Below, one piece after another: positions 3,242 through 33,953 of a DNA stretch of 33,953 nt. The position numbers and the translations under genes are program-made. The number at the start of each line of letters is the position of its first letter. Position 1 is the first letter of the stretch. Where the stretch lies: IMG/VR virus record IMGVR_UViG_2534682338_000010, positions 1 through 33,953 of that record. One strand, 5' to 3'. The notes beneath the pieces are model-generated. The model was not told the DNA's origin. It did no database searches and worked only from the letters and a program-made list of their open reading frames with translations. The DNA comes from a virus (lineage: Duplodnaviria > Heunggongvirae > Uroviricota > Caudoviricetes).

Positions 3242-4741
3242 GTGGAACTAATGCAAGATATTAAAATTCATTTTCAAGATTACAGTTTCGTTAAGGTTGA
3301 TTGCTCTCCTTCTATCGGAATGGAATTAAGAGATTATTTCTCGTTTGAGGTTGAAGGGGCTAGGTTTAGCCCCCGTTACAAGTATTCTGGCTGGGATGGA
3401 CGAATAAGACTGTTTACGCATGAAAACACCCTACCAATTGGACTATTAAAAACGTTGGGTGTCTTTGTTAAAAATATGGGGTATTCAGTCTGGATTGACC
3501 CTAGATTGCTTGAGAAGGAAGATGTAACCAAAGACGCGATTAATGAATGGATTGATTCCTTAGAAGTGTATTCCGGTTCCAATAAAATCAATCCTTACTG
3601 GTATCAAAGGGAGGCAGTCTTTCAGGGTATTCATAATCGCCGTAGAATGCTGGTTCTTCCTACCAGTGCGGGTAAGTCATTGATTGCTTGTATGCTGTCT
3701 CGTTGGTACTTAGAGAACTACACCGGAAAAGTTCTAATCATTGTCCCTACTACATCGCTGGTGGTTCAAATGAGGGATGATTTTGTCGATTATAGGCTAT
3801 TCCCTTATGAAGCAATTCATACAATGATGAGTGGTAGCGGGAAACATCCGGGAGACAGGTTAATCACGGTTAGTACCTGGCAATCAGCTTGCAAGATGCC
3901 TCCTGAATGGTTCCGACAATATGGAATGTTGATAGTTGATGAATCACATAAGGCTAGTGCCAAAAATATTACCAATATCATTAACGGAATGAATCATTGT
4001 CAATTTAAGATCGGCATGACTGGTTCCCCGAAAGAATCAAAGTGCCATTTAATGCAGTATGTCGGGCTTTTCGGTGATATTTCTAAGATCGTGAGTATTG
4101 ACCGCCTGATGGAAGAAGGGCAGGTGACAAAACTGAAAATTAACTGTCTTTTCCTTCGTTATACCGATGAGGAATGTAGCGCGGTTAAGGGGAGAGAATA
4201 TGCGGAAGAGATCAAGTATATTACGTCTAACCCACGACGAAATAAGTTTGCTTGTAATTTGGCGCTAAAACTCGCTAAGAAGGGCGAAAACGTATTCCTG
4301 ATGTTCCGCAATACTAAGCACGGAAAACTTATGTATGATGCGTTACAGAAGGTACACGACAAGGTTTATTATATTGACGGTGGAGTTAAGACAGAAGAAC
4401 GTGATGAATTTAAGAAATTAGCGGAAGGGGAAACAGGGATCATTTGCGTTGCATCCTATGGTGTGTTCTCTACTGGTGTTTCAATTAAGAACTTGCACCA
4501 TGTTATTTTCGGTCATCCAGTGAAGGAATCAACTATCGTTCGTCAGAGTATCGGTCGTGCATTGCGTAAACATGGTTCTAAGGATATTGCAACGGTCTGG
4601 GATCTTATAGATCATCTGTGTATATTCGGTCGTAACGGAAAAGTCAAGCATAAAAATTATGCGGTAAAACATGCACTTGAGAGAATACGCTATTATCTAA
4701 CCGACAAGTTCAGCTATGCAACTAAAACAATTGCTATATAA
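3242..4741 (+). CDS. SF2 DExH helicase, UvsW-like (branch-migration/recombination helicase family)
   Basis: Walker A LPTSAGKS, motif II LIVDESH, motif VI QSIGRALRKHG; 499 aa; overall resemblance to T4 UvsW as recalled from memory. Confidence 0.8.
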   Translation: MELMQDIKIHFQDYSFVKVDCSPSIGMELRDYFSFEVEGARFSPRYKYSGWDGRIRLFTHENTLPIGLLKTLGVFVKNMGYSVWIDPRLLEKEDVTKDAINEWIDSLEVYSGSNKINPYWYQREAVFQGIHNRRRMLVLPTSAGKSLIACMLSRWYLENYTGKVLIIVPTTSLVVQMRDDFVDYRLFPYEAIHTMMSGSGKHPGDRLITVSTWQSACKMPPEWFRQYGMLIVDESHKASAKNITNIINGMNHCQFKIGMTGSPKESKCHLMQYVGLFGDISKIVSIDRLMEEGQVTKLKINCLFLRYTDEECSAVKGREYAEEIKYITSNPRRNKFACNLALKLAKKGENVFLMFRNTKHGKLMYDALQKVHDKVYYIDGGVKTEERDEFKKLAEGETGIICVASYGVFSTGVSIKNLHHVIFGHPVKESTIVRQSIGRALRKHGSKDIATVWDLIDHLCIFGRNGKVKHKNYAVKHALERIRYYLTDKFSYATKTIAI

Positions 4742-21114: not shown

Positions 21115-21537
21115 TTAAAAACGCGCTAGATAAGAAAATTTAAGGCTAAGTGTCCCAACGATACCACCATCACTAGAATCATCGTCATAATCGGTATTAG
21201 AAGCTACTGGAGTGATATCTGAAATTGAGAAGCCCAAATCTTTAAAACGTGGGTTATCCGGCTGAATCTGGATTATCTGGCAAATACCCTCATGAATTTT
21301 CGTTTCATGAATCTGAGAATATAACTGCATTTCGATAACGCATTCAGCTTGCATTGCATTACCGCCACGGACCCTAGTGTAAGTCTCATTCATTCCGGTG
21401 ATCCAACAAACCACGTCATCACTAAAGCCTTGCTGAGTTTGTTCTACGTTTAAAGCCAGACCTAAATCTTGTTCGATAATATCCTGCAAGGCGCGTTTGA
21501 TTTTCAGTCTAGGCATATTATTAACGGTAGCGAGCAT
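21115..21537 (-). CDS. head-tail joining / tail completion protein
   Basis: ATG at 21537 preceded by AGGGGG with 6-nt spacing; overlaps the upstream gene end by 17 nt. Confidence 0.45.
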   Translation of the reverse strand: MLATVNNMPRLKIKRALQDIIEQDLGLALNVEQTQQGFSDDVVCWITGMNETYTRVRGGNAMQAECVIEMQLYSQIHETKIHEGICQIIQIQPDNPRFKDLGFSISDITPVASNTDYDDDSSDGGIVGTLSLKFSYLARF

Positions 21538-22002: not shown

Positions 22003-24006
22003 TCATTCAGCGGAGATGTGAAGAACTTTCAGAGCTTCCGGCTGAACTACGGTGAAGTCCAGGTCTACCCAGATACGCGGAACGATAGCAGACTGTGCGC
22101 GGTAAGTGGTGTCGTCCATATCCAGTTCCAGACCACCCCATTCACCGATCATGATACCGGAGAAATCACCCAGAACGATGTGGTCTGCCGGAATAACGCC
22201 AGAAGTAACTACATCGTAACCAGCCAGTTTGCCGTTTTCGATGATATAACCGGAAACGCCGTTATCTTTCAGGGTAGATTCCAGTTCAGCAGCAGTTGCA
22301 CCGCTCATTGCAAACTTGATGGACTGTGCCGGAACGCCAGCGTCGGTCAGTGCTGCAATTTCTTTCAGGAAGTCTTTGTAGCTAAAAGCGGCTTTCTTAG
22401 TAACGCGACCACCGTCTACCAGTTGCTTAACCAGACCTTTCGGACCTCGAGTATTATCTTTGTCAGACAGAATCAGTTGTTCCAGTTTGATGCGAACAGC
22501 TTTGTTAATATGATCAGTGATCAGGGTAGCAATATTCGGAACAGTTTTCAGAGACTGACGGCTGATCGGGTTGCCACCAGCAAACGTCTTAGGAGCCATT
22601 TTCACGTTTGCAAATTCAGCTTTGCTTTCCGGTGCAGCACCGTTTTCATCAACGAAACCGAAAGCATCAACGCTGGAAGTAGTCATTTTCGGTACAGCAA
22701 TCGGAGCATTCAGACCAGACAGAACAGTCACACCCAGACGACCCAGAACAGACTGCGGAAGCAGCATTTCTACATAGGATTCGGTCAGCAGTTTTTCGTC
22801 GGTTACAGCAGTCAGAGTAGCTTTGGTGTTACCATCAGCAGCAGCACGCAGAGCAGCAGCCGGAACGAATACAGAGCCACCGCGAGCAGCACGACCACGC
22901 TGCATTGCAGCACCAGCAGCCATTGCAGAAAACTCGGCTTCGTTAGCACCCAGAGCTTCACCATCTACCAGGGAGCGAATTACGTTGTTCAGGTCAAAAG
23001 TTTTTTCCATTTTAGAGTCCTTAATTTGTTCGTTATTACGTTGAGCAGTAGCGATTTTATTTAGTGTCTTAGTGCGGAATGCTTCCGGCGTCATGTCTTT
23101 AATTGCTAATGCGCGTTTCAATTCTTCGTCATCAATATTTAGTTCGCGTGCAATTTCGCGAATTTCTAATTCATCTTCTTCGGAACGTTCAGCCACTTCC
23201 TCGGTTTTTTCTTCTTCATCCGGAGCGGCTTCACGTTCTTCTTTTACTTCTTCTGCTTCCCGAACAGTTGAACTATCATCATCAACACTTTCAGGATGTT
23301 CAGCGTCTTTTCCGTCTTCGAGATTTTCATCTTCTTTATTCTCTTCAACTTGGCGCTCTTGAGTTTCTTCAACTTCCGGTTCTTTATTTTCTTCTACCGG
23401 AGTTTCTTCAACCTGAGCGGATTCTTGTTCTTCTTTGATTTCTTCGATTTGTTCTTTAGTCATATCGCGTTTAGCCTCCAAATTAACTGTGATAGTATTT
23501 AGAGAGCGATTTAAACCGACAGAATCATCGGCAGGGACCGTCACAAATGAAATTTCAAAAGGCGCCCACTTAGTAACAATCAATTGCCCTTTGGTGTAGT
23601 CGATGTGATATTCTTTAATGTCATAACCGACAGAAATTTTTTCCATCGTACCTTCAATGACTTTATTGCGAATATCATTAGCCAAAGTGCCATGCTTAGA
23701 GAATTTAACCAGAGCACGACCTACGTTATCCGCATCGATTCGAGCGTTACAAACGACACCAATATGATTATCGAAATTATGATTGAACAGCAACGGAGCG
23801 TTATTATTCAGACGGGACAGATCAACCGCTTCCGGTGTATGTACCAGAATTTCATCTAATACCACCATTTCTTGATTTTGCTCATCCCAGAATTGGCGCT
23901 GATAAGGCTGTTCACTGGAGAAAGCAATTTCAAATTCGTATTGATCGTTATGCCCTTCGTTAATAACTCCACCGTAACCGTTAAGATCGCGGCGAAATTT
24001 AAGCAT
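22003..24006 (-). CDS. prohead protease / acidic scaffold (delta-like) / HK97-fold major capsid protein fusion
   Basis: 667 aa: N-terminal about 170 aa protease-like (ends EISFVTVPAD), about 150 aa extremely Glu-rich linker, C-terminal about 330 aa capsid-like. Confidence 0.75.
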   Translation of the reverse strand: MLKFRRDLNGYGGVINEGHNDQYEFEIAFSSEQPYQRQFWDEQNQEMVVLDEILVHTPEAVDLSRLNNNAPLLFNHNFDNHIGVVCNARIDADNVGRALVKFSKHGTLANDIRNKVIEGTMEKISVGYDIKEYHIDYTKGQLIVTKWAPFEISFVTVPADDSVGLNRSLNTITVNLEAKRDMTKEQIEEIKEEQESAQVEETPVEENKEPEVEETQERQVEENKEDENLEDGKDAEHPESVDDDSSTVREAEEVKEEREAAPDEEEKTEEVAERSEEDELEIREIARELNIDDEELKRALAIKDMTPEAFRTKTLNKIATAQRNNEQIKDSKMEKTFDLNNVIRSLVDGEALGANEAEFSAMAAGAAMQRGRAARGGSVFVPAAALRAAADGNTKATLTAVTDEKLLTESYVEMLLPQSVLGRLGVTVLSGLNAPIAVPKMTTSSVDAFGFVDENGAAPESKAEFANVKMAPKTFAGGNPISRQSLKTVPNIATLITDHINKAVRIKLEQLILSDKDNTRGPKGLVKQLVDGGRVTKKAAFSYKDFLKEIAALTDAGVPAQSIKFAMSGATAAELESTLKDNGVSGYIIENGKLAGYDVVTSGVIPADHIVLGDFSGIMIGEWGGLELDMDDTTYRAQSAIVPRIWVDLDFTVVQPEALKVLHISAE

Positions 24007-26143: not shown

Positions 26144-28048
26144 TTAGAACGATGTTACCCAGCTACGGCCTCTATTTGGGCGTCTGGCGATGTTTTTACG
26201 TTGTGGTCGTGTGATTGGCTTATTTTCTTCGATTTGCTCGTCAGATTGCGATTTAGGAGCTTCTACGGGTTCTTCTGGTTCACGGTTCAAACTATCTTTG
26301 ATGGCTTCGAGTTTTTCCCATGACATTTTATTGAGTACATGGCGAGAAGCAGCATAGGAATAAGCCAGGCAGTCGAGAGCCTCGTTTCGTTGCTGACCAA
26401 CTTTTACCCAACGTGTGGTATTACCCTGCCGTTTCAACTGTTCAGAAAGCAATTGCTCGCAATAGTCATCAGGAACGTCACCAATCTGGAAGACAGTGTG
26501 AGGATCGCCATCTCTCAAGTTCCGGTTAATCATTTCACGGATCATCGTTTTAAGGTTGTTTACGCCCAGAATTTTAAGGGTAAAACCACCCGTTCTTGTG
26601 TCTTTTACCGGAAGGATTGGTGCATCAACATTGCTTGCGCCTTTAATGGCGGTTAGATTTTGCCACCGACTACAGAATCGGTAGATCACTTGCGTAGCTC
26701 GTCCGTTCGATGAGTCCACGAAAGCAGATAGCATCGGGATTCGTTCACCGGATCGGGTATAGAATTTCGCTTTCAGGAAGTTATAAAGCTGGTCATATGC
26801 TGGTGATTCGTGGCGTTCGCAGTTCACATCATAGAATGATCGGTGATCAACTACGCATAGACCTTTACGAGAAATACCCAGCAAGGTAGATTCCAGACGG
26901 TCTTTTTGCTGGTCAACTCCACCTACCAGAGCCAGTACATCATCAGGAATATTGTCTAGGCTAATATCAGTTTTCAGCGTTTCCAGTTCGTCGGCTGTGC
27001 GGTCTTCGTTAAGATCATCGAAGGTTTCACCGAGGACTGTATTGTAGAACGTTGCCAGGGACATATTCGCGTAGCTATCAGCAAAGTCCACCACACACGC
27101 ACGGATAGAACTAAACGGAGACATAAGGCGGTTAGCATGAAAACCGATTACTTCCGCATTTGGTTCGGTGGCGACCCATTCTCCCTTAGCAACAGCACGT
27201 AGGCGATCCCCTTCGGTCCAGTCGGTTTCACATTCAGGACAACGATAAACGGCTGTATCTGGGTTGGGTAATGATTTACCGTTAATCGTATGCCAATCGA
27301 AATGTACGTTACTCCATTCCATTACGTGCTTGTGTCCGCAATGCTGGCAAACGACATGATATTTTCTCTTATCCGAGAGTTCCCATTGTTGGTTAATCGC
27401 CCCATCACGAGCGGTTGGAGTGGAAGCAATTACGATCCTTGCATCTTCCCCGAAAGTGGTTGCGCGTTGTTCCGCTAGCTGGATCGGGTTCCCTTCGTCT
27501 GACTCATCAGCCGCATCAACTTCATCAAGAATAATCAAAGGGAGTGTTTTACCGCGAAGATGTGACGGACTATTCAACGACATGAAATACATAAACGATC
27601 CGTTACGAAGCTGAATAATCGATGAGTTGTTAACGGCATTGCGATCTGATTTGTCGGTGATCATCGCCTTTAATTCTGGCGTTGCCTCTAATACTGGCTT
27701 CACCTTACCAGCGATCCAAGAATTTAGTTCCCTAACGTTACTTTGCAACACCCCGATATTAGTAGGGTTACTCGCGATCCGATGGAAGATAATTCCGTTA
27801 AGAATCATGGTCTTACCCAACTGTGCCGAACATTTAAACACAATTTTTCTACGGTCTTCGGTGATCGCGTCCATCATTCCACGTTGGAAGGGATGCAATT
27901 TAATTAGAGATCCGGCTTTAACACCATCGGTAGCAACTACGTTAGCCTCTACCCACTCGCTAGGTTTCATTGCTTTAGGTGGGCGAATTGCAGCAGAGAT
28001 ATTTCTGAGAATCTTTTTTAATTTTGCCTTATTAGAAATCAGTTTCAT
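26144..28048 (-). CDS. terminase large subunit, lambda GpA-type
   Basis: 634 aa; Walker A KCSAQLGKT; acidic ILDEVDAADESDEG (Walker B-like); Cys/His cluster CQHCGHKH...CPECE as in GpA-family terminases. Confidence 0.85.
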   Translation of the reverse strand: MKLISNKAKLKKILRNISAAIRPPKAMKPSEWVEANVVATDGVKAGSLIKLHPFQRGMMDAITEDRRKIVFKCSAQLGKTMILNGIIFHRIASNPTNIGVLQSNVRELNSWIAGKVKPVLEATPELKAMITDKSDRNAVNNSSIIQLRNGSFMYFMSLNSPSHLRGKTLPLIILDEVDAADESDEGNPIQLAEQRATTFGEDARIVIASTPTARDGAINQQWELSDKRKYHVVCQHCGHKHVMEWSNVHFDWHTINGKSLPNPDTAVYRCPECETDWTEGDRLRAVAKGEWVATEPNAEVIGFHANRLMSPFSSIRACVVDFADSYANMSLATFYNTVLGETFDDLNEDRTADELETLKTDISLDNIPDDVLALVGGVDQQKDRLESTLLGISRKGLCVVDHRSFYDVNCERHESPAYDQLYNFLKAKFYTRSGERIPMLSAFVDSSNGRATQVIYRFCSRWQNLTAIKGASNVDAPILPVKDTRTGGFTLKILGVNNLKTMIREMINRNLRDGDPHTVFQIGDVPDDYCEQLLSEQLKRQGNTTRWVKVGQQRNEALDCLAYSYAASRHVLNKMSWEKLEAIKDSLNREPEEPVEAPKSQSDEQIEENKPITRPQRKNIARRPNRGRSWVTSF

Positions 28049-28091
28049 GTAATTACCCTCATTACGAAATATGAAGGTATTTATTAAATTG

Positions 28092-28119
28092 TTGATATTT
28101 TGATAAATACGGGTATTAA
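28092..28119 (+). promoter_or_regulatory. sigma70-like promoter for the 28136 gene
   Basis: TTGATA (28092-28097), 16-nt spacer, TATTAA (28114-28119); AAGGGGG SD before the ATG. Confidence 0.45.
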
Positions 28120-28135
28120 GATTTAAGGGGGTTGT

Positions 28136-28741
28136 ATGCTAATTAATCAGCAACAAAGAGATGAATTAAAATTAGCCTTTTCTTGTTGTACCGATCATGA
28201 ATATCGTTTGCCAGTAAAACATAAGCACTTAAAGACTGATTACACAACATCCGGGTTTAGCCGTGAGGAAGCGAAAGAGATTTTAATAGAATTTTACCGT
28301 GATAATGGTTATACAGACGTTCACAACTTCTTTAAGAAACATAGAACATCACATACAGAGTTTCGGAGAGTCCGAGATTGGTTTGATTTTGATATCAAGC
28401 GTTATTATCGCATTGATGACGGTCCTATCTATCGGTTGCAGTGGAAGCCGATCCGAGAAGTGTTGAAACAGACAAGGGATAGTATGGCTGTCACAATGCC
28501 ACGTAACATAGCTTTTAAGAAAGGATATGGTGATACAAGGGAACTATTCGTTGAACTCGCTAACGTGAAGTACAGCCACTATTACAACGATCCTAAGTCC
28601 TTCTTTGAAGTGCTTCGCAAGGTTGATATTAGTCGGGGTACATATTATTCACGGTTGAAGAAGTACGGGATTAAGGCAGAGTTCTTTATGTCGGTTGACG
28701 ATGGAGAACTTTTTCCGATAAAATGTAAGTCCTCTAAATAA
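28136..28741 (+). CDS. hypothetical protein with C-terminal small DNA-binding (HTH-like) domain
   Basis: 201 aa; C-terminal segment ISRGTYYSRLKKYGIKAEF resembles the two small paralogs at 28777 and 32146. Confidence 0.6.
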   Translation: MLINQQQRDELKLAFSCCTDHEYRLPVKHKHLKTDYTTSGFSREEAKEILIEFYRDNGYTDVHNFFKKHRTSHTEFRRVRDWFDFDIKRYYRIDDGPIYRLQWKPIREVLKQTRDSMAVTMPRNIAFKKGYGDTRELFVELANVKYSHYYNDPKSFFEVLRKVDISRGTYYSRLKKYGIKAEFFMSVDDGELFPIKCKSSK

Positions 28742-28776
28742 AGGTGAACATTCACTTTAATTTGGAGAAAATGACT

Positions 28777-29004
28777 ATGACTACTAAAGCTACTCGCGGT
28801 CGTCCTGCCCGTTTTAACGCTGAACAGATGGCTGATATTGCCTACGCTTATTATACAGCGGATCGTGGTAAGGAAGCGAAAGAACAGATTCTTAGTGAAC
28901 ATGGGATTTCAATTGCCCAATTCTATAAGAATATGAAGAAGTTAGACATTAAATTCTATGTTCAGATCGGTGATGGTCAGATCGTAGAAGCAACAGGTTT
29001 TTGA
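28777..29004 (+). CDS. small DNA-binding protein (GRP/AT-hook-like N-terminus plus HTH-like core)
   Basis: MTTKATRGRPARFNAEQMADIAYAYY...; GGAG 9 nt upstream of this ATG; track ORF begins at an upstream GTG (28744). Confidence 0.55.
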   Translation: MTTKATRGRPARFNAEQMADIAYAYYTADRGKEAKEQILSEHGISIAQFYKNMKKLDIKFYVQIGDGQIVEATGF

Positions 29005-29019
29005 GTTTTGATTCTCTTT

Positions 29020-29044
29020 GCCACTCTTCGGAGTGGCTTTTTTG
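29020..29044 (+). terminator. rho-independent terminator
   Basis: stem GCCACTC / GAGTGGC with loop TTCG, followed by TTTTTTG. Confidence 0.7.
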
Positions 29045-29151
29045 TATCTGTAGGGTGTCCAAAACGCCATCGGCGGGTTGGTGGAAGATGGCGCGAAAAG
29101 TCGCGTGATGTAGGTATGAAAAAGCCACGCACTAGGCGAGGCTAAAAATTA

Positions 29152-29967
29152 TTACAGTCCGAAGACTTCCAGTGATCCAACATTCTGACGGAGACGTTCA
29201 GCCGCTTTATTTTGAATCAGAATAGTGTTATTTGGCTGCGGTAGTTTAAGAGTTGCTTTCTGTTCTTCTTCCAAAACGCCCAATTCAACCAGCACCGGAA
29301 GCACATCAACAGTAAACTCAAGTTGGTAGTGAGCATTCATGCGGCAGAAAGACAGAGAAGAGTCATTAGCAACATACCCACACGGCTTGTTATTTTCATC
29401 ATAGACGCGCTCAATGTATCCAGCAGTACGCAAGGCCGTCAGTGCTTCTTTAACCTTCGTAGCGCCCTTTTTAGCGCCTAACAGACGCGTCATTGAATGG
29501 CTATCTACAGACTTACGAACATGAAGTTCAATCAGCTTTTTGTTTTCGCGAGTTTTCTTTAATGCCAGTTCGATCCAGTCTGTTTCTTCAAAGTCTGCAT
29601 ACGGGTTAACAGCTAAACGTTCCTGACGCAGTTTTTCATTTTCTTCTTTCAGTCGTTTCCATTCCTGAATAACAACCATTCGACGCTTAACATCGTAACC
29701 AGTAACAAGAGTCAGCGTAAGTTCTTCGTCAAGGTGATATTCGGTTTGTTCACGTCCATATTGGTCAAAAAAGATGCGTCCAAATTTGGACTCATCTAAT
29801 TCAAGAGAAGTAAGCATAGTTTTAATATCACGTTTAACATGCTTATGTTCTTTTCCGGTAAATTCAGCGATCTGACGGGAAGACATGGTCAGCGGTTTGG
29901 TGTTATCAACAACCAGAGACACGGAAGCAGTTTTAACAGCAGTATTCATAGTAGTAACAGTATTCAT
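29152..29967 (-). CDS. Rha-family phage regulatory protein
   Basis: N-terminal LTMSSRQIAEFTGKEHKHVKRDIKTM matches the conserved Rha motif; likely start at the first ATG of an 18-bp tandem duplication. Confidence 0.7.
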   Translation of the reverse strand: MNTVTTMNTAVKTASVSLVVDNTKPLTMSSRQIAEFTGKEHKHVKRDIKTMLTSLELDESKFGRIFFDQYGREQTEYHLDEELTLTLVTGYDVKRRMVVIQEWKRLKEENEKLRQERLAVNPYADFEETDWIELALKKTRENKKLIELHVRKSVDSHSMTRLLGAKKGATKVKEALTALRTAGYIERVYDENNKPCGYVANDSSLSFCRMNAHYQLEFTVDVLPVLVELGVLEEEQKATLKLPQPNNTILIQNKAAERLRQNVGSLEVFGL

Positions 29968-29976
29968 AGTAGTAAT
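29941..29976. repeat. perfect-but-one 18-bp tandem duplication at the start of the Rha gene
   Basis: AGTATTCATAGTAGTAAC followed by AGTATTCATAGTAGTAAT; encodes MNTVTT-MNT on the minus strand. Confidence 0.8.
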
Positions 29977-30063
29977 TCCCCTTAAACGGTTTTGCGATAA
30001 TGATATTGGTCCTCCTAGTTCCGGCATCACCACCGGAACAATTTTATTTATAATAGAAATTTA

Positions 30064-30396
30064 TCACCAATCGATTTCTACTTGGTCTTCTTCATAATAA
30101 GGAATCGCATATTCATAACGCCAGTTTTCGATGATTTCACGTTCTTCATTAGTAAGAAGGTGATTGTTAACTGGAGTCGCATTGTGATTACCAGCTTCGA
30201 ATTGCTCGCGAACTTCCAGCATTGCATGAATACCAGTTAAGGACATCAGATCAAACGGAACATGCATACTACGGGAGATAGTTTCACGGGATACGCCCCA
30301 ATCATTTTCTACATGGCTAGGGGTTACAGAAACGGTTTTGCCGGAGATTTTAACAGTCCAGTCATACAGGGATTTAGTGATGGTAAATTCTTTCAT
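30064..30396 (-). CDS. hypothetical protein
   Basis: 110 aa; AGAGGA SD; driven by a near-consensus promoter just upstream. Confidence 0.6.
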   Translation of the reverse strand: MKEFTITKSLYDWTVKISGKTVSVTPSHVENDWGVSRETISRSMHVPFDLMSLTGIHAMLEVREQFEAGNHNATPVNNHLLTNEEREIIENWRYEYAIPYYEEDQVEIDW

Positions 30397-30452
30397 GTTA
30401 CATCCTCTTTACAAATCTAGGTCAAATAGGTTCAAAGTTGTCAAGTGCGATA

Positions 30453-30481
30453 ATCATAAAAAAGTTTGAAGATATTGTCAA
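30453..30481 (-). promoter_or_regulatory. near-consensus sigma70 promoter (minus strand)
   Basis: minus-strand TTGACA (30481-30476), 17-nt spacer, TATGAT (30458-30453); a second TTGACA lies at 30444-30439. Confidence 0.55.
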
Positions 30482-30517
30482 ATACCCCTTGACAGGACGC
30501 CAAAGGGTTGACCTAAC

Positions 30518-30985
30518 TTACAGCATATCTAAGCCTTCATCGTAACCGTAGAAGCCATTCTGAGAAGAGAAACAGATTGGAGCGTAGTCGTCGTCATCTT
30601 CGTCTTGTTCATCGCGTTCTGGTGCTTTCTGAGCGGTTTCTTTGCCGTAGTTAAACATTGCTTCATCCAGTTCATAGACAGTAACGAAGCTACCTAAATC
30701 AATGTCATAATCACGGACTTCGAAAGGCAGGTCATCACGAACAATGATTGCTGGAATGTTCTGGTATTTCAGGCGGTCTTCATCGGTGAAGCAGTTAACA
30801 ACAATGGTCGGCTTCTTATTACGGCAAAACGCATAACATGCACTAGAGAAATGGGATTCATCGGAATTGAAAAGGATGTTATAACCACGTTCACGGAACA
30901 TCTTCATTAACTTGTCATTGTGGAAGCTATCAGCATCAAAACCTAACAGGATGAAAGGAGTAGTGGTAGTCATTTTATGGTTCAT
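30518..30985 (-). CDS. hypothetical early protein with strongly acidic C-terminal region
   Basis: 155 aa; AGAGGA SD 8 nt upstream; C-terminal ERDEQDEDDDDY. Confidence 0.6.
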   Translation of the reverse strand: MNHKMTTTTPFILLGFDADSFHNDKLMKMFRERGYNILFNSDESHFSSACYAFCRNKKPTIVVNCFTDEDRLKYQNIPAIIVRDDLPFEVRDYDIDLGSFVTVYELDEAMFNYGKETAQKAPERDEQDEDDDDYAPICFSSQNGFYGYDEGLDML

Positions 30986-31388
30986 AGTGGAAATCCTCTA
31001 AAAGAAAGTGAATCAAAGTAATTCTGATATTATTTATAAGAGAAAATTCTTGATGATTTTGGAAGGGATTGTTACTCACTTCGTTCGTTTACTAGAATCA
31101 GTTATCATCTGGTATTAAATCCCTTTCTAAGAAAATCCTTTCAAAAGTGATTCTCGATGCCACGCAGTGGCGTCGCAGACGTTTGGGAGTGAGCGAAGCG
31201 AGCGAGCAAACTAGTTAATTCCTTCTAAGATCATCTAGTTTAAATTAGTGTTACTAGAAGTAATTGGTTAGCGCTTCGCGCAGTCGGGCTACGCCCTCCT
31301 AATATCTTTTTGGTTATTTGTTGTTTTTGGTTTTACACATGAGCGTAGCGAATGTGTTATATAATATCTATGCACGCCCGATTCCCCG

Positions 31389-31630
31389 TTTTGCCCCTCA
31401 CTAAGTTAATGTTTTATAAAGAGTTTTTCTCACAAATCCTTTTCGGGGGCAAATTTCAGGGGCAAAAATTAGATTTTCAGGGGCAATTATTGGCATTTCA
31501 GGGGCAAAAATGAGGGGCAAAATCACTGTTTCCCAGAATTTCAGGGGCAAAAATAGTAGGTTTCAGGGGCAAAAATGGGATGTGGAATCTAGGGGATTTT
31601 GGTTCAGGGGCAAAATTCGGGGGCAATTTT
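31389..31630 (+). repeat. iteron-like array: 9 direct copies and 1 inverted copy of GGGGCAA(A/T)
   Basis: direct copies starting at 31445, 31459, 31480, 31501, 31514, 31544, 31566, 31607, 31619; inverted copy at 31389-31397; several have the extended form TTTCAGGGGCAAAAAT. Confidence 0.8.
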
Positions 31631-31667
31631 CATAGTGTAGGGCTAGTGTAGGTTTGAAAATCCTTTG

Positions 31668-31696
31668 TTGACACTGTGTAGGATCGGTGGTATACT
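31668..31696 (+). promoter_or_regulatory. near-consensus sigma70 promoter P1
   Basis: TTGACA (31668-31673), 17-nt spacer, TATACT (31691-31696). Confidence 0.55.
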
Positions 31697-31724
31697 TGAA
31701 AATTCGAGATAAATATTTTATAAT
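31696..31724 (+). promoter_or_regulatory. near-consensus sigma70 promoter P2 (tandem with P1)
   Basis: TTGAAA (31696-31701), 17-nt spacer, TATAAT (31719-31724). Confidence 0.55.
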
Positions 31725-32145
31725 ATTTGTATTGAAAGTGAAAATTTACCGATTTTCCTTCCTATTGTTATCACCGTGTTAAATTGTTATATGTCTGTGA
31801 AGATTTGGATCTGAGAGAAAATCTTGTAACAAATCTTTACAATTCATAGCTCAATTAATGCTCACCGCTTTAGCAAAAAGTGCTATGCCTTTTTCTAAAT
31901 TGATTGAATATACATCAATTTGGTTAAATCGTGTTCTTCGCTTTAGCAATTCGTGCTGTGGTTTAACACATTTAACACGTCTGATAACATCTGAATAACA
32001 TTTTAACATATCTCTGTTATAAATACATATATAAGAGATAAATGTGAGGGGTTGAAAAATAAAATACAATCCCCATATAAATAATAGTGAGCGGTTAACG
32101 CTCTTTTTTAAGAAATCATTAATCCACATTGTAGGAGGATTCGAG

Positions 32146-32328
32146 ATGGCACGACCTGTTAAGTTCACTCGCGAAATCATCTTAGAAATGGCTAAACGCT
32201 ACTTTGAGTTAACGCCGGGTGTGAGAATTGAAGAGTGGTTTAAAAATGAGGGCATCGATAAATCAACCTTTCATAAACTGCTAAAACGATATGACATTAA
32301 AGTGAAGATTGAAGCTACCGTTTGGTAA
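32146..32328 (+). CDS. small DNA-binding protein (paralog of the 28777 gene)
   Basis: 60 aa MARPVKFTREIILEMAKRYFELTPGV...; AGGAGGA SD 6 nt upstream. Confidence 0.65.
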   Translation: MARPVKFTREIILEMAKRYFELTPGVRIEEWFKNEGIDKSTFHKLLKRYDIKVKIEATVW

Positions 32329-32442
32329 TCAACTTTGACTGAGAATTATATGATGGCTTTAAAAAAGAAAAAGCCTCCCTTGTTGCAGCAAAGGAGGCTT
32401 GAAATGAACAATTAAAACTAACTTTCCACAGGAGTATTTATA

Positions 32443-33384
32443 ATGTTATTTTCCGCTAACTTTTTCACTAACGAAGTAACCAACGCTAAAGCAGTTATCA
32501 AATTTGGCACCGAAGCAAACAAGAAGATTCAGCCGAAAGTTGTTGCTCATGTTTCCTTTGCGCAGCAGAAATCCGCCTTCGCTGGCTTTAAAGCACATCG
32601 TGAAGCACTGATCGCGGCTGGCTTTGGTGTTGACGGTAAACTGCCTAACGGCATTCGTAAAGCAATCGACCGCGTTAAACCTGCTAAAGACGTTGCAGTA
32701 GACCACATCGTTACTTTTACCGTTAAGAACTCTTCTGAACTGTTCCACCTGGTTATTGCTGGTGATACTGCTATCGTTTCCGCTCCTAACATGGATTTTC
32801 AGGATACCGCTGATTGCCAGATCACCTTCGGTCGTCGTAAAGAAGTTACCGGAAAAGCTAAACTGAACTTCACTAAATCTGGCAATCCTTACTTTGCTGT
32901 TTTCTTTAACAGCCACGCTACCGAAAAAGAAGTTGTAGAACTGGTTGCTTATGAAGGTGAAGAGAAAGAACGTATTGAATCTTGCGAAGCATTTCTGGAA
33001 CTGGAAGCACAGGTGAATGCTGTTTCTCCGGTTGTTGAAGATCGCTTTGCTGCACTGGAAGCACAGATCGCAGAACTGAAAGCTGCACTGGAAGAAAAAG
33101 ACCAGATTATCGAAGCACAGAAAGCTGAGATTGAAGAACTGAAAGCTAAAGAAGTTGCTCCGGTAGCAGTAGTTGAAAACGCGGCTGATGAGGCCGCAAA
33201 TGATGAAGTAGAAGTGAAAATCGATGTGATGCGTGATCCGATGGCTGCACTGCAATTACTTCGTTCTTTTAAGGGCAAATCTCATTTTTCTAGTGATGTA
33301 GAAGATGAGGAAGAAGAACAGAAACGCAATGCTGCAATGCTTCATGATGAAATGTACGGTACTAACTTTTCTTACTGCCAATAA
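32443..33384 (+). CDS. abundant early-type protein with central coiled coil and acidic C-terminal region
   Basis: 313 aa; codon usage strongly skewed to high-expression codons (CTG, GAA, AAA, CGT, GGT); coiled-coil segment LEAQIAELKAALEEKDQIIEAQKAEIEELKAKE. Confidence 0.7.
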   Translation: MLFSANFFTNEVTNAKAVIKFGTEANKKIQPKVVAHVSFAQQKSAFAGFKAHREALIAAGFGVDGKLPNGIRKAIDRVKPAKDVAVDHIVTFTVKNSSELFHLVIAGDTAIVSAPNMDFQDTADCQITFGRRKEVTGKAKLNFTKSGNPYFAVFFNSHATEKEVVELVAYEGEEKERIESCEAFLELEAQVNAVSPVVEDRFAALEAQIAELKAALEEKDQIIEAQKAEIEELKAKEVAPVAVVENAADEAANDEVEVKIDVMRDPMAALQLLRSFKGKSHFSSDVEDEEEEQKRNAAMLHDEMYGTNFSYCQ

Positions 33385-33668
33385 AAAAAGGGACTCCGAA
33401 GAGTCCCTAGTAAGTTTAGGTTAGGTTTGCGCAACAAAGATGAGGTTATAATGAACATAATGCTACATTATTCTTTAAAGCCAGAAAAATAACCGCCCCC
33501 GAAGGGGCGGGAGGATTAATACTCAATCTATACTTGTTATGTTTTTATGTTGTATAGTCACTGACTATGAAAACACTGTACTGAATGTGTTTTATGGCTT
33601 TTAATCGGGAACTCTCTTTCGAAAGCCCCCTGTTAAAACCACATAAGGAGAAATGGCAGATTACAATA

Positions 33669-33953
33669 TTATTTAGTCTGTTTGAAAACAAACGTTAAAA
33701 ATTCGATTAAGCAATATACCCAGAATACCGTCAGTAGTAAATGCATAGCAATAGTTGGATGGAAGTTAAAAAGTGTCATACTAACTAGGCCAACAATATA
33801 AGAAATCCCTTCGACAATTAACGCAAGGCTAGCAAATGCAACAAACGCACCCAAGAATAATTCGCCTCGTTCTTTCGGTTCGGTTCCGAGTTTATAAGCA
33901 GAGATAGCAGCCAGAATAGTAATGATGACAGCATAGGTAATAAAAGTAGCCAT
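33669..33953 (-). CDS. small integral membrane protein (about 3 TM helices); start codon at the window edge
   Basis: 94 aa, hydrophobic throughout; ATG coincides with the last 3 bases of the window. Confidence 0.5.
   Translation of the reverse strand: MATFITYAVIITILAAISAYKLGTEPKERGELFLGAFVAFASLALIVEGISYIVGLVSMTLFNFHPTIAMHLLLTVFWVYCLIEFLTFVFKQTK

Follow-up and report, generated by a model that had tools for sequence, protein, structure and literature searches.

Four copies of a divergent helix-turn-helix domain in three small proteins of an Enterobacterales prophage: probable early-region regulators rather than small terminases

Introduction

Several phages encode more than one related small DNA-binding protein and use them at different control points, as is the case for Mor and C of Mu, Arc and Mnt of P22, and CI and Cro of lambda. 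Many small terminase subunits (TerS) have an N-terminal helix-turn-helix (HTH) domain with an N-terminal arm, and some known recombination directionality factors (RDFs) are small HTH proteins. Here, we analyzed a 33,953-nucleotide stretch of DNA from a virus of the Caudoviricetes (IMG/VR record IMGVR_UViG_2534682338_000010, positions 1 to 33,953; hereafter, the window), in which three small proteins of 201, 75 and 60 amino acids (p201, p75 and p60; all predicted open reading frames) share a domain. The window is almost the whole of a ~34.8-kb prophage, 93-94% copies of which lie inside ycdX of complete Escherichia coli chromosomes. A first-pass annotation had proposed that the three proteins are DNA binders, acting either as packaging recognizers resembling TerS or as early transcription regulators. 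We regard it as probable (about 0.6) that p201, p75 and p60 are paralogous sequence-specific regulators or accessory DNA binders of the early control region, and not TerS.

Homology among p201, p75 and p60

The three genes and the domain copies that they encode are located as follows.

28136-28741, plus strand: p201, 201 aa, isoelectric point (pI) 9.4, two tandem domain copies with a disordered linker
28256-28435, plus strand: domain copy 1 of p201 (the fourth copy overall), residues ~41-100, recognized by BLASTP, hidden Markov model (HMM) and predicted topology
28502-28720, plus strand: domain copy 2 of p201, residues ~123-195, recognized by hhalign and HMM
28777-29004, plus strand: p75, one copy of the domain, with an RGRP arm at the N-terminus and a beta-hairpin at the C-terminus; the start agrees with the RefSeq coding sequence
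32146-32328, plus strand: p60, a single domain; first gene of a rightward operon by the iterons, always with a gene of the h313 class (below) on its 3' side

All three reading frames were found at these positions, each with a Shine-Dalgarno site, and are labeled hypothetical protein in RefSeq for E. coli. A domain of approximately 55-65 residues is common to them and is present in four copies. In direct BLASTP comparison, p75 matched p60 (E=3e-8, 30% identity over 56 aa), p201(41-98) matched p75 (E=2e-4), and p201(134-187) matched p60 (E=0.003). When ortholog profiles built from 32 related IMG/VR prophages were compared by hhalign, p75 and p60 aligned at E=5.4e-12, and the C-terminal half of p201 aligned both with p75 (residues 147-195, E=1.4e-6) and with p60 (residues 133-182, E=2.4e-6); for the N-terminal half of p201, E was about 1e-3. 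An HMM trained on p75 and p60 relatives alone, without any p201 sequence, gave 18.3 bits for the C-terminal half of the window's p201, as against a maximum of 14.9 bits among 10,800 composition-matched p201 shuffles. The same HMM scored the N-terminal half at 18-27 bits in diverged orthologs and at 5.7 bits in the window's own p201, and in a six-frame scan of the window (381 segments) it matched the p201, p75 and p60 frames alone.

These data establish that the C-terminus of p201, p75 and p60 are paralogous, as the first-pass annotation had proposed. Its count of three domains holds for those three, and a fourth copy, in the N-terminal half of p201, had been overlooked. The GRP or AT-hook-like start that it had ascribed to all three proteins is a feature of p75 only: p75 and its orthologs carry T/K-RGRP-x-RF, p60 has ARP only, and p201 has neither, so that the motif is not domain-wide. 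The three genes had also been said to flank the structural module; all of them lie on its side next to the large terminase subunit (TerL) gene. The ratio of nonsynonymous to synonymous substitution rates is 0.06-0.15 for the p201, p75 and p60 genes, which are under purifying selection, and all three products are basic (pI 9.0-9.6).

Predicted fold and family of the domain

AlphaFold2 predicted one unit three times, once in p75 and twice in p201, consisting of three helices followed by a two-strand beta-hairpin. A three-helix bundle with a helix 2-turn-helix 3 arrangement was predicted in each modeled copy, with helices of 7-15 residues and a predicted local distance difference test score (pLDDT) of 82-93. 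In p75 (pLDDT 83), the helices span residues 15-27, 32-41 and 46-55, and the strands 61-64 and 68-71. The p201 model consists of two tandem domains (domain pLDDT 82-92) and a disordered linker, with helices 43-57, 62-68 and 73-83 and strands 87-93 and 98-100 in domain 1, and helices 135-148, 153-162 and 167-176 and strand 181-187 in domain 2.

Scans of p201, p75 and p60 against Pfam, PHROGs, NCBIfam and PADLOC gave nothing above threshold, and a PDB sequence profile search with the three proteins gave no meaningful match. Below threshold, the domain recurrently matched HTH_Tnp_1 (best E=0.003), HTH_7, HTH_23, HTH_10 and HTH_17; the top Pfam score, 18.0 bits for HTH_Tnp_1, lies under the curated cut-off of 24.1. 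Weak HTH matches were obtained for 5 of 23 relatives (E=0.019 for the p75-like protein of the related prophage L111). An exhaustive HMMER scan of 1.84 billion cluster representatives returned only a handful of true relatives, together with several proteins having 4-8 tandem HTH repeats, and those of the latter that were scanned were strongly positive for HTH_23, HTH_28 or HTH_Tnp_1. By hhalign, the domain profile matched repeat units of HTH_23/HTH_Tnp_1-positive proteins with 96.7% probability and E=3.9e-10, values that are optimistic because the units had been selected with the domain's own HMM. The top Foldseek matches were ArgR/AhrC N-terminal domains, but at E>=0.33 and TM<=0.42. The conserved RGRP arm of p75 is reminiscent of the GRPR arm of Hin, a resemblance only. 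Our conclusion is that the domain belongs to the homeodomain-like HTHs of the Hin or IS3-OrfA type, as a divergent form with an added hairpin after helix 3.

The domain is almost confined to one Enterobacterales prophage lineage that integrates in ycdX. Prophage matches were found in 63 of 5,426 complete E. coli genomes (about 1%), and the prophage also occurs in Salmonella, Shigella, Proteus, Providencia and Edwardsiella. Two scans of species-representative genome contigs gave nothing, a metagenome scan returned the same prophage family only, and nothing relevant was found in the literature on these protein accessions or on ycdX prophages. A two-copy match on an archaeal-looking contig, P0133, was set aside as marginal and of unrelated context. 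The family is new, unnamed and narrowly distributed, yet its members are a very familiar kind of protein, an ordinary HTH.

The p201-p75 cassette

The elements surrounding p201 and p75 are as follows.

26144-28048, minus strand: TerL, lambda gpA type (GpA_ATPase 7e-62, GpA_nuclease 2e-46; PHROG 15 at 4e-145)
28049-28135: 87-bp divergent spacer between TerL and p201, holding the TerL 5' untranslated region and the presumed p201 promoter
28088-29112, plus strand: p201-p75 cassette, ~1 kb (promoter region, p201, p75, terminator), from spacer alignment with L111
29020-29043, plus strand: intrinsic terminator of the p201-p75 unit, GCCACTCTTCGGAGTGGC followed by TTTTTT

In L111, an Edwardsiella-type relative, a single plus-strand operon comprises iterons, a p201-like gene, a p75-like gene, p60 and a gene for a 377-aa h313-class protein, far from TerL, and TerL directly abuts Rha. 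In the spacer alignment, the L111 TerL-Rha spacer equals window 28049-~28087 joined to ~29113-29151. This alignment shows window ~28088-29112 to be a discrete cassette, whose insertion in the E. coli lineage separated TerL from Rha. Its G+C content, 37% as compared with 43-47% in the adjoining 1-kb windows on each side, and its own terminator are consistent with such an insertion.

Conservation of block 28001-29047 amounts to 84-96% in almost all 32 loci, and the adjoining regions are mosaic. Across lineages in which p201 is only ~50% identical, the 87-bp spacer retains 76% column identity, and hence is more conserved than the genes that flank it. Orthologs of p201 are 49-97% identical and always present in the prophage lineage; the p75 gene is missing from the L078 lineage. 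TerL itself is mosaic, with two allele classes that are 56-60% identical, yet have identical first 16 residues and conserved last ~45, and the conserved TerL 5' end is part of the p201-p75 cassette block. An inverted repeat, GTATTTAT-N17-ATAAATAC, was dropped as an operator candidate because it spans the cassette junction.

The p201-like gene of L111 (4280-4954) has an in-frame TGA at 4577, within the first domain, and is either a pseudogene or two single-domain genes. The L111 p60 is identical to an Edwardsiella tarda protein.

The small terminase

According to the first-pass annotation, no conventional small-terminase gene precedes TerL. This apparent lack is a window-edge artifact, because the window stops ~100 nt short of the gene: a 184-aa Nu1-like TerS lies ~100-650 nt past position 33953 (L066 28254-28808, minus strand; ~window 34048-34602). 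Along its whole length, the L066 protein aligns with PHROG 57 'terminase small subunit' (E=2.8e-15); for the L111 ortholog, the PHROG 57 E-value is 1e-23, and Pfam Phage_Nu1 also recognizes it (E=1.3e-5). A gene of similar size occupies this position in every relative examined. The TerS gene is at the attR-proximal end, ~6 kb from the same-strand gpA-type TerL, with the whole early/regulatory region in between, an unusual separation for terminase genes of the lambda type. As a TerS candidate, the 165-aa gene located between portal and TerL was rejected, since it encodes a head-tail joining protein (PHROG 5774, 2e-8).

None of p201, p75, p60 and 23 relatives matched the TerS families (Pfam Phage_Nu1 and Terminase_2/4/5; PHROG TerS) at E<=1, and the PDB profile search gave no TerS chain at E<=10. 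The AlphaFold2 models of p75 and p201, which are predictions only, contain no oligomerization core or TerL-binding segment. Relative to the window, TerL of L069 is 96% identical and its p201 54%, and TerL of L004 is 58% identical and its p201 91%; p201/p75 alleles therefore assort independently of TerL.

Iterons, p60 and h313

The region around p60 contains the following elements.

31391-31626: GGGGCAA iteron array, 10 copies, 9 direct and 1 inverted
31668-31724, plus strand: two strong sigma-70-like promoters toward p60/h313 (TTGACA-17-TATACT and TTGAAA-17-TATAAT, each 11/12)
32443-33384, plus strand: h313, 313 aa, variable in its N-terminal domain and acidic in its C-terminal region, with a coiled coil

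The window has 14 GGGGCAA matches against 2.5 expected, 10 of them in the array. Over the 32 loci, the distributions of the array and of h313 orthologs coincide exactly, and GTGTAGG or CGGGGA repeats take the place of the array in loci where p60 is followed by another protein; p60 alleles of the main class are found with all three repeat types. Since iteron type co-varies with the h313-class protein, and not with p60, p75 or p201, the repeats are most likely read by the h313-class protein, and h313 is probably an iteron-binding protein. The link drawn in the first-pass annotation between the three small proteins and the GGGGCAAAA repeats is therefore not borne out. GTGTAGG was rejected as an operator common to all loci, as it is not universal among them. 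Scans of h313 against Pfam, PHROG and PDB gave nothing beyond coiled-coil noise, and a homolog search returned near-identical hypothetical proteins only. Exchange of the iteron type goes hand in hand with exchange of the N-terminal domain in the protein after p60 (L019 9226-9330 and 10195-11190; L010 9244-9510), a pattern reminiscent of lambda O and ori or of a heteroimmunity module.

The p60/h313-class pair is kept in L019, L069, L076-L078, L111, T4-like L071 and L075. The coupling of p60 to such a gene thus spans four phage backgrounds, one of them a T4-like phage equipped with an iteron array and a promoter of its own. In that T4-like contig (ENA ERZ27275837 k141_13924), the module is an opposite-strand insertion at L071 5180-6625, in which AGCGATTAC iterons and a strong promoter accompany genes for a p60-like protein of 64 aa, an h313-class protein of 204 aa and a coiled-coil protein of 80 aa. 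The insertion has on one side a tail gene resembling gp19 (possibly gp3; its Pfam matches are only faint) and on the other T4-like gene 2, in a region with gp2, gp53, gp5, gp6 and gp7, where the genes called include no integrase. In its N-terminal domain, the 204-aa protein resembles the GTGTAGG-class protein (E=3e-10), and it has a faint RepM match (E=0.001) far below the cut-off. At least four iteron types have thus been seen: GGGGCAA, GTGTAGG, CGGGGA and AGCGATTAC. Megablast and tblastn searches of GenBank phages and PLSDB plasmids gave no match for p201, p60, h313, the T4-like p60 or the T4-like 204-aa protein.

Other features of the prophage

The remaining parts of the window are listed below from left to right.

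Left end of window: three small genes
1279-2973: large serine recombinase, 564 aa
3242-4741: UvsW-like superfamily 2 helicase, next to the serine recombinase
Minus strand: lysis, tail and head block, ending with portal, the 165-aa head-tail joining protein and TerL
Minus strand, right of p201-p75: Rha/Ant-like gene and two small acidic genes
Non-coding stretch of 1.16 kb: holds the ten GGGGCAA repeats and the two rightward promoters
Minus strand, window end: 94-aa gene

The UvsW-like helicase has weak PADLOC matches (PbeA, type IV restriction helicases) and is possibly a defense gene; other genes hold its place in strain VTB96775v, so that the site is a variable cargo slot. At 22003-24006, one 667-aa protein combines the major capsid protein with an S78 prohead protease domain (Peptidase_S78 and Phage_capsid in orthologs). 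ARAGORN called a 91-nt tRNA-Glu on the plus strand at 21260-21350, inside a minus-strand structural frame; this call is probably spurious. A perfect 18-bp tandem duplication (29940-29975, CAGTATTCATAGTAGTAA twice; repeated TTMNTV peptide) is found at the 5' end of the Rha-like gene. The first gene of the leftward operon (30518-30985) encodes a 155-aa protein with a strongly acidic, aromatic-bearing tail, EDDDDYAPICFSSQNGFYGYDEGLDML; it is present in all relatives and has no family match. An Rfam scan of 28000-33953 gave nothing significant.

Discussion

The data presented here favor the regulatory alternative of the first-pass annotation, with DNA binding by p201, p75 and p60, their target sites and their regulatory role being inferred. 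The phage that carries the domain is a ~35-kb temperate siphophage of Enterobacterales, which uses a large serine recombinase to integrate in ycdX. The four domain copies probably arose by tandem duplication inside an early, iteron-proximal operon; such an origin of p201 and p75 is suggested by the L111 gene order, all on one strand, with TerL abutting Rha. Each domain would bind DNA via helix 3, to which p75 would add a minor-groove arm, and p201, with two domains on a flexible basic linker, would read a bipartite site as a monomer. We propose that p60 works with the variable iteron-binding protein encoded just 3' of it, as an autoregulator or accessory factor, and that p75 and p201 form a second regulatory unit, which in the E. 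coli lineage was relocated, as a self-contained cassette running from promoter to terminator, so that it now heads the packaging operon, by the 87-bp spacer.

Some observations weigh against this interpretation. The sequence link to HTH repeat proteins carries the optimistic E-value discussed above. No binding site was found, and the conserved motifs of the TerL-p201 spacer recur nowhere else in the window. The first 16 TerL residues travel with the cassette block, which would also fit a protein contact between the cassette products and TerL.

Among the alternatives, p201, p75 and p60 might be TerS-like recognizers of cos or pac DNA that hand it to the gpA-type TerL, as would accord with p201 adjoining TerL, with the conservation of the spacer and first 16 TerL codons along with p201, and with a domain that is an HTH with an N-terminal arm. 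This idea is already contradicted and is highly improbable: a full-length Nu1-like TerS exists, p201 and p75 are divergently oriented from TerL and do not co-vary with it, no oligomerization or TerL-binding domain is predicted, the genes lie away from TerL in L111, p75 is dispensable, and a p60 homolog occurs in a T4-like phage with packaging genes of its own. A role as excisionase-like RDFs for the large serine recombinase has an equally slim chance. Small basic HTH proteins in a prophage with a serine-recombinase integrase would suit it, but the T4-like region harboring a p60 homolog has no integrase among the genes called, the recombinase gene of the window is unlinked, ~25 kb away, and three paralogs are unexpected for such a role. 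Somewhat less improbable, although still unlikely, p201-p75 could be a prophage repressor or a moron-type superinfection immunity unit expressed in the lysogen and silencing the leftward lytic/packaging operon. Its own promoter region and terminator, its lower G+C content and its orientation opposite to all neighboring lytic genes point that way, as does the failure to find a CI-like repressor among the genes scanned; against it, the same genes share an operon with p60 and an h313-class gene in L111, p75 has been lost in one lineage, and the heteroimmunity-like swapping concerns h313 and the iterons, not the cassette.

The alternative that we take more seriously, while considering it doubtful, is that these proteins are architectural or adaptor co-factors of an iteron complex, in which p60 (and ancestrally p201 and p75) would assist assembly of the h313-class protein on the iterons; such a complex might be a lambda O-like replication origin, a partition site or an immunity site. 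The conservation of the p60/h313-class pair and its upstream iterons across unrelated phage backbones, the joint swapping of iterons and h313-class N-terminal domains while p60 stays, and the faint RepM match of the T4-like partner all argue for it. Against it, p60 alleles are not tied to h313 classes, the E. coli p201-p75 genes lie 3 kb from the iterons under their own promoter, and no PLSDB plasmid uses the module. We likewise hold only tentatively a broader proposal, namely, that iterons, a p60-type HTH and an h313-class protein form a mobile DNA-recognition module not described before, common to temperate siphophages and a T4-like lytic phage, which would be a new kind of phage replicon or a heteroimmunity/exclusion system, with p201 and p75 as duplicated offshoots of its HTH component. 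If this is true, a constant small HTH partner works with interchangeable iteron-specific proteins.

Under the preferred reading, that of early-region regulators or accessory DNA binders, three conserved 'hypothetical' genes acquire a probable role and the false lead of a missing small terminase is removed. The analysis also points to the real control region of an uncharacterized phage group, the iteron array, where specificity is swapped with the protein after p60, and the iteron/p60/h313 module is the more promising lead. As the HTH family is absent from Pfam and PHROGs, a model of it would benefit prophage annotation; beyond this, the biology is of the kind known from ordinary HTH regulators.

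Comparison with known systems

The Hin/resolvase and IS3-OrfA HTH domains (HTH_7, HTH_23, HTH_Tnp_1) are the nearest in type. The phage domain stays under their curated thresholds, adds a conserved beta-hairpin after helix 3, and occurs as free-standing 60-75-aa proteins or as a tandem pair, and p201, p75 and p60 have no recombinase or transposase catalytic domain. Lambda gpNu1 resembles the p201-type proteins in small size, in an HTH plus wing (a predicted hairpin in the phage domain), and in location next to a gpA-type TerL. Unlike gpNu1, p201, p75 and p60 have no profile match to that family and no self-association or gpA-binding region, the genes are oriented opposite to TerL, and the phage carries a genuine Nu1-like protein elsewhere.

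The p60-h313 arrangement recalls lambda cro-O and iteron plasmids in that a small HTH gene lies ahead of one for a protein whose N-terminal domain changes with the nearby iteron array. Here, the iterons lie upstream of the operon and not within the initiator gene; no known Rep or O family is matched by h313, and no helicase loader is present. With respect to Mor/C of Mu, Arc/Mnt of P22 and CI/Cro of lambda, there is no sequence relationship and the folds are different (that of Arc and Mnt is ribbon-helix-helix), but p201, p75 and p60 would be like them in being related small DNA binders of one phage that are placed at different control points.
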